From a virus: a DNA stretch of 64,000 nucleotides. The stretch is from the UHGV virus genome UHGV-1351569; one strand, 5' to 3'. The notes beneath the pieces are model-generated. The model ran no database searches. It worked only from the letters and a program-made list of their open reading frames with translations, and was not told the DNA's origin. Made by a program: the position numbers and the translations under genes. Of the stretch, positions 3,752 through 56,942 are shown piece by piece; position 1 is the stretch's first letter; each line of letters starts with the position of its first letter.

Positions 3752-3924
3752 ATGATGATTTAAAATATCAATTATTACGTGAACTTGATGTTTTGATTGA
3801 ACTTTCTGCACAAAAAGGATTTATAATTGGATCGGGTCAAAAAGACCCCAACGGTCATTCAATCGTATCGGTTATGAATCAGAAACGAGTCATTTTAAAA
3901 CTTTTGGGGATTGACATACTGTGA
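3748..3924 (+). CDS. hypothetical small protein, 58 aa (below track size cutoff)
   Basis: Hand-translated; ATG overlaps upstream stop (aATGA); stop overlaps next start. Confidence 0.4.
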   Translation: MNDDLKYQLLRELDVLIELSAQKGFIIGSGQKDPNGHSIVSVMNQKRVILKLLGIDIL

Positions 3925-4106
3925 GCCTAAGCAAAGAACAAAAAGATAAATTGTTTGAGCTTATCCATGAACTTCTAGATGAGCATACAGAAGCAAACAC
4001 CTTTTATGATGAATACGGCCCGCTATCTCCCGAACAGCAGGAAGAATTTGCTGATCGGTTTGATAAGAAAGAAAATGAATTAATAGCTTATGTGAATACG
4101 CTTTAA
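3921..4106 (+). CDS. hypothetical protein, 61 aa
   Basis: ORF from track (GTG start), acidic helical. Confidence 0.45.
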   Translation: MSLSKEQKDKLFELIHELLDEHTEANTFYDEYGPLSPEQQEEFADRFDKKENELIAYVNTL

Positions 4107-5736: not shown

Positions 5737-5925
5737 ATGAAAATTGAAGCACTTAATCAAGAAGGAAATATCTACGTCATCATTAATGGTGATTTTTTCG
5801 TCAACATGGATGAAGTTACCAGTGAAGAACTTGAAAAACTTCTTAAGAAACGCTATGATATGTGTGATGAAGCTGCAACTCATATGGCGTGTGCAATATT
5901 CTCTCTTTCATATGTGGTGGAATAA
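5737..5925 (+). CDS. hypothetical protein, 62 aa
   Basis: ATG at 5737 preceded by aagaggagaa RBS (track start 5692 lacks RBS). Confidence 0.5.
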
Positions 5926-6128
5926 TGATTAGTATTGAACAAGCAGATAAAATTAAAGAATTGGTAGCTTTAATTCGCAAAGCAGACGAGGAACTTAGTG
6001 ACTTTGCTTGGTTTTCGGCAGGCATTGCAAATAAAGGCGCTGAAGAACTTGAAGCTAAAGTTGATAATGCTGTAGAAGCTTTAGATATGTTTCTTGATGA
6101 AATTATCGATCATAATACGAGAGTTTAA
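5925..6128 (+). CDS. hypothetical protein, 67 aa
   Basis: taATG overlap with upstream stop. Confidence 0.5.
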   Translation: MISIEQADKIKELVALIRKADEELSDFAWFSAGIANKGAEELEAKVDNAVEALDMFLDEIIDHNTRV

Positions 6129-6130
6129 GT

Positions 6131-6325
6131 ATGCTAACACGTGAACAGTTTGAAAAAATCATTAAATTAGCACGTGATATTGAAATAGATTCATACCAAT
6201 TGGCAGTTGAGCATTGTGAAGGATATTCATACGATGGTATAGAAGCAGCTAAAAAGGATTTGGATAAATCCAAAGCTAAGTTAGTTCAATATCTTGAAAT
6301 GATTAGGTGGAATAATGAAAACTGA
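6131..6325 (+). CDS. hypothetical protein, 64 aa
   Basis: ORF from track. Confidence 0.5.
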   Translation: MLTREQFEKIIKLARDIEIDSYQLAVEHCEGYSYDGIEAAKKDLDKSKAKLVQYLEMIRWNNEN

Positions 6326-6488
6326 AAAGCAGATGTTTTTAATGAAGCTAATTGAAGAATATGCTAATGCAGTTTCTGACTATGAGTATTCTTCTAGGGA
6401 AAGAGGTACAGCTTTCGCAAAGGAAGAAATGAAAATCATGGTTGATGCTCACACAAAGCTTCAGAATTTTATTGAAAACGTCATTTAA
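6315..6488 (+). CDS. hypothetical small protein, 57 aa (below track cutoff)
   Basis: Hand-translated; overlaps end of previous ORF. Confidence 0.35.
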   Translation: MKTEKQMFLMKLIEEYANAVSDYEYSSRERGTAFAKEEMKIMVDAHTKLQNFIENVI

Positions 6489-6490
6489 TG

Positions 6491-6520
6491 GTTTACAAGT
6501 TGGCAAGGTTATGGTATAGT
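6491..6520 (+). promoter_or_regulatory. T4-type early promoter
   Basis: GTTTAC 6491-6496, 18-bp spacer, TATAGT. Confidence 0.5.
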
Positions 6521-6655
6521 AATCTTGTCAACTGCCAAGGAGAAGAGAATGAAAGTTTTGTTTGTTGTGTATGTGATGATTCAATATTATCACCCGATGT
6601 TTACTTATAATCTGGTGAACAACATTATTGATATTATTCAAAGGAGTATGTAATT

Positions 6656-7033
6656 GTGAGTGAGTCGAAGAGAATCAATATGAAACGATTGGTATTAGAA
6701 GTTAGTCCACTTTTTGGTGAATTGGCTATAGAAAAAGTAAATAACATGTATCGTTTGACGCAAGAAGACGATATGCTGTATTTTACGCCTAGTGAAATCA
6801 TTCATTTAACCCAAATTGAATATCCTTATACTGATAAAATAGTAAGCATCAATGATGAGCACAAAATTCATTTTTATTCTTCATGCCCAGGATTTAATAT
6901 TAAAAGTGAGTCAATGTGTTTATCAGTTATCCATTGGGATAGTTTTATAGATAAGATTAAATATTTTTATTATTCTAATGAAAGAAAACATAGTTTAAAA
7001 TGGTTTAAAAAATTGCAATGCTATTATTACTAA
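6656..7033 (+). CDS. hypothetical protein, 125 aa (GTG start)
   Basis: aaggag RBS 9 nt upstream of GTG; see finding on downstream start-less open frame. Confidence 0.5.
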   Translation: MSESKRINMKRLVLEVSPLFGELAIEKVNNMYRLTQEDDMLYFTPSEIIHLTQIEYPYTDKIVSINDEHKIHFYSSCPGFNIKSESMCLSVIHWDSFIDKIKYFYYSNERKHSLKWFKKLQCYYY

Positions 7034-7220
7034 CGCTTGCAATCAGAACGATGAAACTCTTTTAAATGTATCAAAATGTTATGAAGATGGAGATGTCTTA
7101 ACTATTCGTCAAATTGATGATTTTCGATCGCATATTGTCACATTTACCAAAGACGAAGCTATTGCGCTAAAGACTTATCTTGATTCTGTCATTCCAACTA
7201 TGATTTCAAAGTGAGGAAAT

Positions 7221-7742
7221 ATGTTTATTTCAAGTGAAAGCGGTTTAATTCGTGTTGAATTTAAAAATGACATCTTTCTTATTCAAGGAGATGATATTAT
7301 TAAAATGAGTTATGACGAAATCAAGAAAATTTGTAATGCTCTTGAAAATCATGGAAAGGTGAATGCTGTCATTGATATTGGCGATTTATGGGTGACACTT
7401 TATGAAGTATCCGAAGGATTTAACATTGAAGATGAAAACAACATCTTAGCTATTGATAAAAGAAGCGATTTGTTTGATGTGTTAAAAGTTTATGAACAGT
7501 CAAACGGTGGAAGAAAAGCTGCATTGATTTATCAAAAACCACATTCATGCGGAACTGCTTCAATCATTTCCAATATTGAAGGCGAAGTTGATACTTATAT
7601 GTGTGTTTTAAAAGCTGGTGGTGACCGTCATCCGGATTTTATTTCTATTCGTCAAAACAATGGAGAAATTTCATTATCAAAATCAGAAGCTGAAGCTATG
7701 ATTAAGTATTTAACAACCGTTACGCCTTCAATGAAAGGATAA
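7221..7742 (+). CDS. hypothetical protein, 173 aa
   Basis: gaggaaat RBS. Confidence 0.6.
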   Translation: MFISSESGLIRVEFKNDIFLIQGDDIIKMSYDEIKKICNALENHGKVNAVIDIGDLWVTLYEVSEGFNIEDENNILAIDKRSDLFDVLKVYEQSNGGRKAALIYQKPHSCGTASIISNIEGEVDTYMCVLKAGGDRHPDFISIRQNNGEISLSKSEAEAMIKYLTTVTPSMKG

Positions 7743-7744
7743 TT

Positions 7745-8206
7745 ATGATTATTAATGAAAACTCTTGGCACTATAAATTATTCAAATTGTTTAACGATGA
7801 ATGGCAACGACCTAAGACACTATGCGCATATTTTTGGTCTATTGCCATTCCTACATTTTTCGTTTCTATTTTTGGATGTGCTATACTCGTAGGGCTAACA
7901 ATTATTTGTGCAGAAAGCCTACAACGTTGGCTTATTTTTGGTAGTTTATGGACTTTGCTTCCATCAGCATTTATACTTGCGATTTTGGTTGTTTTACTTA
8001 TTATCGGTTCATTTGTTATTCCTGCACATTTGCGTGAAAAATATAAAGATTATAAATGGAAAAAGGATTATGCTTTACACGTAGAAAATATTGATAGGGC
8101 GTATAAAGGTTTACCTCCTATTCAACCCAAGAAATCGATTATCGTTGAATTTTTAAAAGCTCGTAAAGCTAAAGTATGTCCTGTTATTGAATATAAGGCT
8201 GAATGA
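7745..8206 (+). CDS. hypothetical membrane protein, 153 aa
   Basis: Two long hydrophobic segments. Confidence 0.6.
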   Translation: MIINENSWHYKLFKLFNDEWQRPKTLCAYFWSIAIPTFFVSIFGCAILVGLTIICAESLQRWLIFGSLWTLLPSAFILAILVVLLIIGSFVIPAHLREKYKDYKWKKDYALHVENIDRAYKGLPPIQPKKSIIVEFLKARKAKVCPVIEYKAE

Positions 8207-9330: not shown

Positions 9331-10300
9331 ATGAAAACTGTAACTATCAATAAGGGTATCTACTTCGGTAAAGAAATCTCTGGAACTTTTGAGCTCTTAG
9401 GCGAATGGTTCCCAGATAATGCTCCGGTAGATGCACAAGGAGATGGTAAAGTTTTTGTTGAAATTGACGGTAAACGTCGCGGTGTTTGGGTTTACAAATC
9501 AGATATTTCATATGATGGTGTAAAAGTTGAAGAAGTTAAAGAATCGTATGAAGATATGAAAACCCGCATTAATAAAAGATTTAATGTTATGGGAATGATG
9601 ACGAATGGTATTATTAATGGAAATATTCGTTCATTGATTATCTCTGGTGCAGCAGGTATTGGTAAAACGTATTCTTTAGATAAAGCTTTAAATAAAGCAA
9701 ATGATATTGGATACATTGAATATAAAAGCATTAATGGTAAAATCTCTGGTATTGGTCTTTATGAGCAGCTTTGGAATAATCGTGAAGAGAATTCTGTCCT
9801 TTTGATTGATGATGTGGATGTTTTCTCTGATATGGACATTCTTAATCTTCTAAAAGCTGCTCTGGACACTGGAGAGACCCGTAAAGTCTGCTGGAGCACG
9901 GCGTCTTCTTACTTAGAAGAAAAAGGCATTGAGCGTGAGTTTGAATTTAAAGGAACGATTGTTTTTATCACAAACGTTGACATTGACCGCGAATTAGACC
10001 GTGGTACTAAACTTGCCCCCACACTTACAAGCATTAGTGTCCCGCTCGGTTTATTTGGATTTAGGCGTTCACACTAATGAAGAAATTATGGTCAGGGTTG
10101 AAGATGTTATTCTTTCAACTGACATGATGCAAAAGCGCGGTCTTTCTGATGAAGAAACTTATAAAGCATTATCATGGATGAAAGTTAATGTTAATCGTTT
10201 ACGCAATGTTTCACTGCGTACTGCTCTTTATCTTGCTGACTTTATTATGACCGACAAAAACGGTTGGGAAGAAATTGCTGAGGTTACTCTTCTGAAATAA
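9331..10300 (+). pseudogene. AAA+ ATPase gene interrupted by a frameshift (N-part 9331-10077, C-part frame from 10001)
   Basis: Walker A GAAGIGKT, Walker B VLLIDDVD, sensor-1 TIVFITNVD in first frame; lid-like C-domain continues in the next frame; frames meet at a C5 run 10016-10020. Confidence 0.6.
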
Positions 10301-11347: not shown

Positions 11348-11752
11348 ATGAAACAGTTGATAATTAAAAGATTGAATTTATTGATATGTTGTTTATGTAT
11401 AGTAATTGCATATGGTTATTACGCAATTAATGATTATATGCATTATAAAGATTATGATGTTACTGTAGTTAATACCTTTACAGGAACTCAAGGAAAGGGG
11501 TCTAGTTTATCGTTTATTGCTGTATATGAACTCAAAGACGGTTATAGATTTAGCGAATATATTTCACCAGAGATGTATTCATCAATAGAAAAAGGCGATA
11601 ATATTACTGTAAGTTTACGTCCTTTCGACGTAAAACAGACATTGTTTGATAATATTGTTTGGTTCTTTGGAATGGTATTAGTTCAATCTGTATGCGGTGC
11701 TTATATAGTCTTTTCCATCATATTCTGCATATTTAGTAAAATTGAAAATTGA
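11348..11752 (+). CDS. hypothetical membrane protein, 134 aa
   Basis: N- and C-terminal hydrophobic helices. Confidence 0.55.
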   Translation: MKQLIIKRLNLLICCLCIVIAYGYYAINDYMHYKDYDVTVVNTFTGTQGKGSSLSFIAVYELKDGYRFSEYISPEMYSSIEKGDNITVSLRPFDVKQTLFDNIVWFFGMVLVQSVCGAYIVFSIIFCIFSKIEN

Positions 11753-15726: not shown

Positions 15727-16040
15727 AAAAGCGTTTATTAGAAGATATTGCAGCTTCAAGTAATTCCAGTCTAATTAAAATTATTATGGCTGGTGAAGAA
15801 GACGATCTGGAAATGCGTGGAAAGATTCATGGTTGTGACGATTTAGATTTTAAACCTCCAGCTTGGGATGCCATTATGGCTATGGTTGAACGTCGCGAAA
15901 GGGCTTCTAAAAGCGTTCCTAATTGTCCTGAATGCGGTACTGAACAGGTTCAATTAGTCCATTGGCAGACTAGTAATCTTCGTTATAAATGCCGTCATTG
16001 CAAACACCGATTTAACCGAGAAGAAAATGACCAAGCGTAA
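15723..16040 (+). CDS. small zinc-ribbon protein, 105 aa
   Basis: CPECGTEQ...CRHCKHRF (CxxC...CxxC). Confidence 0.55.
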
Positions 16041-16254
16041 AGAATATATGGAGATTGCTGAAAAGGCAGTACGTGAATTAGCAATAGCATATTATAATGA
16101 ACATGGTAAATTTCCTGATAGATACAGCGTGCTTAAATCTGCTTTAACTCGTTCATATAAAAATATGCTATCAGAAGTAAGTGATATTATTACAAACATA
16201 AAGAACAAACGGGCCAAAGTCTTGATTACGACGAGACTTTTAAACAAGTACTAG
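16027..16254 (+). CDS. hypothetical protein, 75 aa
   Basis: ORF from track. Confidence 0.5.
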
Positions 16255-16269
16255 GAATTAAGGAATAAT

Positions 16270-22632: not shown

Positions 22633-22809
22633 ATGGTTGATAAAGAGATTAAAAGGGATCAGTATTATCGTGTTAACGGACATATTGTTATTGTTACAGC
22701 AGTAGATGATCTAGATGTTCATTATACTGTACTTAAATGGAACAAACGCATGATTTGTGATCGTGCTGTATTTAGTTCAGTTGCTAAGGAAATTAAACTC
22801 CATGGGTAA
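22633..22809 (+). CDS. hypothetical small protein, 58 aa (below track cutoff)
   Basis: Hand-translated; gaggaa RBS 6 nt upstream. Confidence 0.4.
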   Translation: MVDKEIKRDQYYRVNGHIVIVTAVDDLDVHYTVLKWNKRMICDRAVFSSVAKEIKLHG

Positions 22810-23023
22810 AACGTATCGTCGTAAAGATTTAAAAGTACGTGATTATGACTATTTCGGAAAGCGTAAAGCTCCTGATGGTGTAAGTCATAAAGATATGGTT
22901 GAAAACATTTTTCGCTCTGATAAATGGCGTAGAATGAAAGGCATTGATTCAGAAGTTAAAGATGAGTTAAATCGTCAATTGCGTGGTGAAGTAAGAAAGT
23001 TGAAAAAAATCAGTTTACATTGA
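22802..23023 (+). CDS. highly basic small protein, 73 aa
   Basis: ATG at 22802 overlaps upstream stop; Lys/Arg-rich. Confidence 0.5.
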   Translation: MGKTYRRKDLKVRDYDYFGKRKAPDGVSHKDMVENIFRSDKWRRMKGIDSEVKDELNRQLRGEVRKLKKISLH

Positions 23024-23235
23024 CGATGATTTTGATTACAATACTTCTCAACGAGTTGCTAAGCGTAAATCAAACGAGTGCTATCGTTACAGCTGAGGAA
23101 AATATGAATATCAAACGCATGCTTTTTAAACAAGGATTATACACTTTAAATATTGCTCCAAAAGGCGATACGACCAAGTGGTCAGTAAATGACTGGATTA
23201 AATTCATTGATGAAAACGGTAACTGGAAAATTTAA
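23020..23235 (+). CDS. hypothetical protein, 71 aa
   Basis: ORF from track. Confidence 0.45.
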   Translation: MTMILITILLNELLSVNQTSAIVTAEENMNIKRMLFKQGLYTLNIAPKGDTTKWSVNDWIKFIDENGNWKI

Positions 23236-52289: not shown

Positions 52290-52521
52290 AGACCAGTTTT
52301 ATCTGCTTCAAGATAAAGTGAGCGAAATTTATGAAATAGCTTATAGTAAAAATCGCAAAAACGTGAAAATTGAATCGGGCAAATTAATGCTTCAATTGGA
52401 AGAAATTGAACGAGATTTGATTGCATTAGAATTCTTTTGCGGTGAAGTGAAAACTGTTACAATCAGTGATTATGTTTTAGGTGAAATTAGCCATCTTTAT
52501 AAGGCGGTTATTAATGATTGA
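52261..52521 (+). CDS. hypothetical protein, ~86 aa (paralog of next ORF)
   Basis: Shares LEEI..D......F......V.I.DY..G.I pattern with 52481-52756; start uncertain. Confidence 0.45.
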   Translation: MRKLFVEITKDQFYLLQDKVSEIYEIAYSKNRKNVKIESGKLMLQLEEIERDLIALEFFCGEVKTVTISDYVLGEISHLYKAVIND

Positions 52522-56303: not shown

Positions 56304-56588
56304 ATGTTTAAAATCGGTAAGAAATATCGCATTCGCGAAGGTGAAGAAAAGAAATATCTATCTTCTGCTATTTATAGGAATGGTTCTATTAATGCCGTAA
56401 TATCTACAAGCGAATTTATCGTTGAAGATATGAAAGGTCATAACGTTACAATGATTAGTACAGCAACTAGCAGAAATGCTGGAAAAATTCTTCACAGTCT
56501 TCGGAGTGAAGTTTTAATTTATGATGAAGAATTTGACTTCTTCGAAGAAGTTCCCGAAGATTTTGATTTGAATGTACTATCACTATGA
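56304..56588 (+). CDS. hypothetical protein, 94 aa
   Basis: ORF from track. Confidence 0.5.
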   Translation: MFKIGKKYRIREGEEKKYLSSAIYRNGSINAVISTSEFIVEDMKGHNVTMISTATSRNAGKILHSLRSEVLIYDEEFDFFEEVPEDFDLNVLSL

Positions 56589-56669
56589 AATCTGGTGACC
56601 CTCTTTCTTTTACAGTTAAAGATGAAAGAAGTCGTTTAAGAATTATTAGTCTCCTTCAAGCCATTAAAT

Positions 56670-56942
56670 TTGAGTGAAATTATGAAATATGTTAATCGTT
56701 CTATCGCGGCATTAGTATTAGCAGTGTCTTTAGCAGGATGTACTGATGCTGATAATGCAACCAAAGTTTTGTCTTCAAGTGGTTTTACTAATATTGAAAT
56801 CACTGGATATAATTGGTTCGGTTGCTCTGAAAATGATTTCCAGCATACTGGATTTCGTGCTATTGGACCTACCGGACAGAAAGTAGAAGGAACAGTATGT
56901 TCTGGTCTATTCTTCAAGGATTCGACTATCCGTTTTAAATAA
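56670..56942 (+). CDS. putative lipoprotein, 90 aa
   Basis: Signal peptide with lipobox LAGC. Confidence 0.55.
   Translation: MSEIMKYVNRSIAALVLAVSLAGCTDADNATKVLSSSGFTNIEITGYNWFGCSENDFQHTGFRAIGPTGQKVEGTVCSGLFFKDSTIRFK

Follow-up and report, generated by a model that had tools for sequence, protein, structure and literature searches.

The window, the whole 64,000-nucleotide stretch of UHGV virus genome UHGV-1351569 that was analysed, represents the early region of a T4-like (Tequatrovirus) phage. Along its plus strand, which follows early transcription, lie tk, rI, the mobD.x and nrdC.x genes, the replication genes and rIIA, in this order. No GenBank record is identical to the window; the closest, PP434423.1, is about 96.8% identical. 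By the offsets of exact protein matches, the window corresponds to positions 96001-160000 of the 168,202-bp metagenome contig JGI 3300045988 Ga0495776_001669. The mobD.1 locus and its immediate surroundings contain the following features.

6492..6520, plus strand: promoter-like site upstream of mobD.2 and mobD.1 (TTTACA, 17 nt spacer, TG, TATAGT)
6549..6653, plus strand: mobD.2 homologue, 34 aa, with its stop TAA at 6651-6653, 2 nt ahead of GTG 6656
6656..7033, plus strand: truncated mobD.1 orthologue from the ORF list, 125 aa from GTG 6656 or 117 aa from ATG 6680
7007..7012, plus strand: A6 homopolymer, site of a +1 nucleotide insertion; A5 in intact orthologues (alignments and a run-length table of 10 genomes)
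7013..7214, plus strand: presumably untranslated remnant of the C-terminal domain, lying in frame +1 with respect to the ORF, with the ancestral stop TGA at 7212-7214
7031..7033, plus strand: premature stop TAA, seven codons past the insertion, a product of the frame shift
7221..7742, plus strand: intact tandem paralogue of MobD.1, 173 aa, with both domains present

The layout is as the earlier note had described it. A 125-aa ORF with a GTG start ends at TAA 7031-7033, a frame of about 70 codons without a usable start follows, and the next gene begins at ATG 7221. The start-less frame is open from 6999 to 7211, between TAA 6996-6998 and TGA 7212-7214, and comprises 71 sense codons; its sole canonical start codon is ATG 7200, four codons ahead of the stop. 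The A-rich run that had been pointed out in the overlap of the two frames is tttAAAAAAttg, with A6 at 7007-7012. The start of the upstream ORF is ambiguous. Relatives are annotated from ATG 6680, which gives 117 aa for the truncated and 177 aa for the intact protein, and GTG 6656, 2 nt past the mobD.2 stop and preceded by AAGGAG at a distance of 9 nt, is the codon that aligns with the T4 start. The choice between the two has no effect on the frameshift finding.

The promoter-like site at 6492..6520 is the best consensus match in 6300-7800 (10/12, with an extended -10 TG), and it would probably drive a small operon that holds the broken mobD.1. The mobD.2 homologue is 85% identical to T4 MobD.2 across all 34 aa (E 4e-20), and the position of mobD.1 between mobD.2 and nrdC.11 is conserved in the annotated neighbourhoods of ime09, SF2-1, PP434423, T4 and T2. 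Downstream, the paralogue at 7221..7742 aligns over its full length with intact MobD.1a at 28% identity (BLASTP, E 3e-10), matches both Pfam domains of the family (PF24449, E 5.5e-34; PF24448, E 6.1e-23) and is assigned, like MobD.1 itself, to phrog_1502. It is a possible functional back-up for MobD.1. The neighbourhood shows two further peculiarities. At 7745-8206 the window encodes a 153-aa predicted membrane protein, RB69ORF104c-like and without a Pfam match, and this gene together with the MobD.1 paralogue takes the place of the T4 mobD HNH homing endonuclease. In addition, Pfam DUF7438 (PF24219) is found in four small genes (3921-4106, 5925-6128, 6131-6325 and 6315-6488), three of them consecutive and just upstream of mobD.2, forming a run of small paralogues.

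Both parts of the mobD.1 locus carry recognisable protein domains. ORF 6656-7030 matches Pfam PF24449 (T4_y05I_N) with 134.6 bits against a cut-off of 24.9 (E 2.1e-39, residues 12-108). The start-less frame 6999-7211, searched alone, matches PF24448 (T4_y05I_C) with 68.6 bits against a cut-off of 27 (E 5.9e-19), covering positions 8-69 of the 69-position profile. The PF24448 domain is thus encoded out of frame with the N-terminal PF24449 domain. T4 MobD.1 carries the same pair, and 29 of the 38 homologue clusters combine both domains with a length of 176-185 aa. Analysis of periodicity in the downstream frame revealed a coding signal in the orthologues: among intact orthologues the variable sites of the C-terminal part fall 9/1/22 on the three codon positions, a third-position bias, and dN/dS against T4 is 0.17-0.24 for this part and 0.15-0.19 for the N-terminal part. 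These substitution patterns indicate that the start-less frame is under purifying selection in relatives.

These data bear on the simplest proposal of the earlier note, that the downstream frame is a non-coding spacer that by chance has no stop codons. The lack of a canonical start codon before 7200 is what such a spacer would be expected to show. However, the PF24448 match at E 5.9e-19, the 98.6% identity to the C terminus of ime09 MobD.1a and the third-position bias of variation in relatives all contradict it, and open frames of this kind are rare by chance, since just 1.1% of mononucleotide shuffles of 7034-7211 remain open. Because both halves of the locus are coding, as seen from the Pfam matches and the codon-position variation, we reject the spacer outright.

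The relatives show what the locus looks like when it is intact. A single longer ORF, which the note had suggested looking for in the orthologous regions of T4-like phages, is present in all four genomes compared: one CDS of 177-181 aa occupies the locus in ime09 (mobD.1a, 177 aa), SF2-1, PP434423 (180 aa) and T4 (181 aa), and in these phages it ends seven bases ahead of the next gene. The mobD.1 orthologues as a group are 177-185 aa long and have the Pfam architecture T4_y05I_N plus T4_y05I_C. In the DNA alignment, the sole length difference within the gene between the window and ime09 or SF2-1 is one extra A, the window reading TTTAAAAAATTGC where the two phages read TTT/CTC-AAAAA-TTGC. If one A is removed from the window, the frame is restored, and the resulting 177-aa protein and T4 MobD.1 are 87% identical from end to end. 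A tblastn search with ime09 MobD.1a likewise recovers two window frames that meet at the A-run, with residues 1-110 at 99% and residues 109-177 at 98.6% identity. The frame shifts at codon 110/111, past Lys110 and six residues into the Pfam C-terminal domain, and homology of the +1 frame to the orthologue runs to the ancestral stop, the TGA being shared. The truncated ORF consequently encodes the full N-terminal domain and 6 residues from the start of the C-terminal domain, followed by the out-of-frame residues KLQCYYY.

ORF 6656-7033 and the start-less frame therefore belong together as the halves of a single gene, orthologous to T4 mobD.1, and the suggestion that an ancestral single gene is now frameshifted holds: relatives have a single ORF, with A5 where the window has A6. 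The mobD.1 locus of the window is a disrupted member of its family, i.e. a pseudogene or a truncated allele. For annotation, this means that the start-less frame should be recorded as the 3' part of a disrupted mobD.1; neither intergenic region nor new gene nor recoding site is the right label for it.

A one-nucleotide change in a homopolymer is also what a sequencing or assembly error would produce, in which case the phage would truly be A5 with an intact gene. This explanation was first suggested by six 1-nt indels that are specific to the window and lie in conserved small genes (mobD.1, nrdC.10, nrdC.1, 55.5, an RB69ORF005c-like gene and the nrdC.7 3' end), as judged against ime09, PP434423 and T4, and the A6 allele was found in no isolate genome. 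The truncated product, however, recurs in independent assemblies, and on this ground we discarded the explanation. The exact 125-aa protein is found on at least seven metagenome contigs, and the 117-aa form on JGI 3300045988 Ga0495776_001669. Three of the contigs come from PRJNA217052 runs (SRR2191451, SRR2191485 and SRR2191108, Fiji gut metagenomes), a project cited by, among others, a Fiji Islands cohort study; others are a SPAdes assembly, ERZ2661092, and a 168-kb contig present in both JGI and ENA. At least three sequencing runs thus yielded the same truncated product, in assemblies made with MEGAHIT (k127/k119) as well as with SPAdes (NODE). Over 0.8-6.4 kb, six retrieved loci match the window at 99.97-100% identity, and one of them also spans the C5 site of nrdC.10. 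These contigs represent one strain and partly one cohort, and they are assembled contigs rather than raw reads, so that their independence is partial; the JGI 3300045988 and ERZ27229741 contigs, which are equal in length, may stem from the same cohort or the same reads. Other frameshifts of the window are reproduced as well: 11 contigs carry the nrdC.10 allele and 22, from several projects, the 55.5 allele. All window-specific coding indels lie in small accessory genes, with 0 in the large replication genes. Taken together, an error at the A-run is extremely improbable. The recurrence of the truncated products in independent assemblies places the A6 allele in a real circulating strain, and since the frameshifts recur in independent runs, this metagenome-assembled phage genome can be trusted at its homopolymers.

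The other indels deserve a short description of their own. The nrdC.10 gene (9331-10297) is frameshifted by C5 at 10016-10020, where relatives have CCCC or CTCC; its ORF 9331-10077 encodes 248 aa instead of 322, the remainder lies in another frame at 99% identity, and the exact product is the one found on 11 contigs. Gene 55.5 (22802-23093) has A7 at 23003-23009 where ime09, PP434423 and T4 have A6, giving 73 aa instead of 97. The presence of this A7 allele on 22 contigs from several unrelated projects marks it as a widespread natural polymorphism. The nrdC.1 gene (16027-16265) has a private -1 at 16190/16191 (75 aa vs 80), the RB69ORF005c-like gene (56304-56674) has T3 at 56567-56569 in place of a T4 run (94 aa vs 123), and the nrdC.7 3' end (11745-11748) has A4 vs A3. 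The 159-aa 'dexA.1' of ime09 also matches the window in two frames, which meet at 52510; the window shows no indel there relative to PP434423 or T4, so the 1-nt difference is private to ime09 and not to the window.

The earlier note had also raised a programmed frameshift. Here, +1 ribosomal frameshifting or transcriptional slippage on the A6 run would yield both a short and a full-length protein from the locus. The shift-site sequence of the locus is TGGTTTAAAAAATTGCAA. The shift needed is +1, and AAA-AAA-T permits +1 re-pairing of tRNA-Lys, as would any A-run; such a slip on AAA-AAA would recreate the exact ancestral WFKNCNA, and the downstream frame is fully intact. The distribution of the allele argues against a programmed site. 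Among 340 matching GenBank phages, a 66-base query with A6 finds 0 exact matches; the best match is 98.5% identical, and all the matches listed differ by a one-base gap. The A5 version has 68 exact and 265 near matches in GenBank. In exact-pattern scans, the A6 pattern is found in 0 contigs of IMG/VR, against 3 with A5, and in 0 JGI contigs, against 4 with A5. The source contig, Ga0495776_001669, is apparently absent from both collections, so these zeros mean just that the allele is on none of their other contigs. The A6 allele of the window occurs in no relative examined, and the relatives encode the protein in one frame.

Stimulatory signals were likewise not found at the shift site. The predicted fold of 6990-7110 is no more stable than that of shuffled sequences (z = +0.39; 130/200 shuffles fold as well), an Rfam search gave no match, an upstream Shine-Dalgarno-like (GGAGG-like) motif is absent, and the A-site codons are AAA and TTG, neither of them a stop. 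Efficient bacterial transcriptional slippage usually needs A/T runs of about 9 or more, and the run at 7007-7012, with 6 nt, is below that length. We rejected a programmed frameshift on the non-conservation of the site and the lack of a downstream structure and of an Rfam family, and regard it as very improbable. The insertion is an ordinary mutation and not a recoding signal, although a little full-length protein may still arise by spontaneous +1 tRNA-Lys slippage or by slippage of RNA polymerase.

To consider what the truncation removes, a structural model of the intact protein is useful. An AlphaFold model of an intact orthologue consists of three beta-beta-beta-beta-alpha units, with a pLDDT of about 90 for residues 1-100 and of about 48-67 for the C-terminal unit. 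The units superpose on solved PUR / Whirly structures. A Foldseek search gave no significant match, and the sequence identity of MobD.1 to proteins with the PUR / Whirly-like fold (Pur-alpha 3k44, MRP1/2 2gia, PBF-2 1l3a) is just 4-10%. According to the model, the N-terminal domain is predicted to have a PUR/Whirly-like fold and the C-terminal domain to be one further beta-beta-beta-beta-alpha unit. By analogy with these proteins, the truncated protein would still have a PUR-like module for nucleic-acid binding but no third repeat. The fold, with its predicted single-stranded nucleic-acid binding, provides a first functional lead for this uncharacterised T4 early gene family. A literature search on mobD.1 found one review, in which the gene is named just as a neighbour of mobD, and a search for y05I returned nothing relevant. 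Several mobD.x genes (e.g. ime09 YP_007004481.1 and T4 NP_049714.1) are annotated as 'molybdopterin-guanine dinucleotide biosynthesis protein MobD'. The wording seems to stem from a clash of names with the T4 symbol, which denotes neighbours of mobile endonuclease D, and not to be a functional prediction.

The phage of the window is not the only one in which mobD.1 is broken. In T4 the run is A6 followed by TGT, in frame. In T2 (7 T2 records and SV76) it is A5 followed by TGT, a -1 shift in the same run, which is accompanied by a 2-nt deletion upstream. pSe_SNUABM_01 has A4 at the same run, again a -1 shift, and the protein tail of IME537 implies A4 as in pSe_SNUABM_01. In fPS-90, mobD.1 is split by a break a few codons further on, and in some T4 variants a deletion fuses mobD.1 to nrdC.11. 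Two homologue clusters show other rearrangements. One (P0021) is a hybrid of mobD.1, in its N-terminal part, and the tandem paralogue, in its C-terminal part, a structure that implies recombination between the two, with a deletion as its outcome; in another (P0023), unrelated sequence follows directly past KWFKK, with the junction at the same A-run. The repeated inactivation of mobD.1 in natural and laboratory T-even phages marks the gene as dispensable, and several of the inactivations can be traced to one A-run. The A-run is a recurrent slippage site in a dispensable gene. Its significance as a hot spot does not go beyond chance, given two hits among five runs of equal length: with the five 5-nt runs of the intact gene as targets, two hits would fall on the same run with a probability of about 0.2 by chance. 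No other run of the gene is as long as this one in the T4/T2 background, and indels are hence expected here.

Recurrence at one run raises the question of whether the truncation is adaptive. Loss of the C-terminal repeat, with the PUR-like N-terminal domain retained, might be selected, e.g. as an escape from a host defence that senses the full-length protein, in which case the A-run would serve to switch the full-length protein on and off by mutation. This run has been struck by at least three indel events, in both directions (+1 in the window, -1 in pSe_SNUABM_01 and -1 in T2), the break at the edge of the C-terminal domain spares the confidently modelled N-terminal domain (pLDDT about 90), and several other accessory genes of the same strain are frameshifted. 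Against selection stand the chance probability of about 0.2 for two hits on the same one of the five 5-nt runs and the length of the run in the T4/T2 gene, which makes it the site where indels are expected in any case. Moreover, the upstream 2-nt deletion of T2 destroys the N-terminal domain, the remaining broken alleles result from deletions or from lesions at other places in the gene, the homologues include no family of N-domain-only proteins besides these broken genes, and the allele is confined to one strain. Selection for the truncation is unlikely. A more elaborate version is quite improbable: in it, the A-run, at the N-terminal edge of the C-terminal domain, would be a hypermutable contingency site at which recurrent +1 and -1 slips alternate the product between a form with three repeats and a PUR-like one with two, the N-terminal domain only. 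Selection by host defences would favour the short form in some hosts, and +1 slippage on AAA-AAA might still supply traces of the full-length protein.

We consider it highly likely that the locus holds a recent, strain-specific +1 frameshift in a dispensable accessory gene, which probably arose by slippage and leaves an N-domain-only protein and an untranslated relic. In the history that we propose, one A was added to the A5 run, giving A6 at 7007-7012, most likely by replication slippage. Translation would then shift past Lys110, read the seven wrong codons of KLQCYYY and stop at 7031-7033. The product would be a protein of 117 or 125 aa that keeps the whole N-terminal domain and loses the C-terminal domain. 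The 3' two hundred bases would be a fresh, undecayed relic that is transcribed but presumably not translated, since it lacks its own start codon. Private window substitutions in the gene number only three (2 synonymous, 1 conservative), and the relic still reaches the ancestral stop, so the insertion is recent. It may have been tolerated because the gene is dispensable and repeatedly broken in other phages, and because an intact paralogue lies next door. This suggests that the truncation is neutral or nearly so, and the truncated N-domain protein could nonetheless be functional, or even favoured.

Several known systems can be set beside this locus. Programmed sites such as the +1 site of prfB, the -1 site of dnaX and the A/T runs of transcriptional slippage likewise have two overlapping frames at a slippery A-run and a short 0-frame product that ends a few codons past the site. 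Unlike these, the A-run of the window is not conserved, has no stimulatory element, stop or structure, and is too short for efficient transcriptional slippage. The intact counterpart is T4 mobD.1 (NP_049711.1, 181 aa, phrog_1502), which occupies the same place, with mobD.2 before and nrdC.11 after it. The repaired window protein is 87% identical to it and has the same two Pfam domains, whereas the reading frame of the window itself is broken by one A; T4, in turn, carries the mobD homing endonuclease where the window has the tandem paralogue and the 153-aa membrane-protein gene.

The closest parallels are the T2 mobD.1 remnant (YP_010073750.1, 97 aa) and pSe_SNUABM_01 gp101 (127 aa), which are the same gene with frameshifts in the same A-run. 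Like the window product, both are annotated as shortened proteins with the N-terminal domain only. Their shifts are of the opposite sign, -1 in T2 (A6 to A5, in the T4-type context) and in pSe_SNUABM_01 (A5 to A4) against +1 in the window, and T2, with its second lesion, the 2-nt upstream deletion, is more decayed than the window. Homopolymer frameshifts by strand slippage are described by the Streisinger model, and the classical frameshift hot spots of T4 rII lie in A runs. Streisinger slippage entails a one-unit change in a short run, in both directions and recurrently at the same site, as is seen here. In contrast to the rII cases, the window carries a natural allele of a gut-metagenome strain and not a laboratory mutation; nothing essential differs otherwise.
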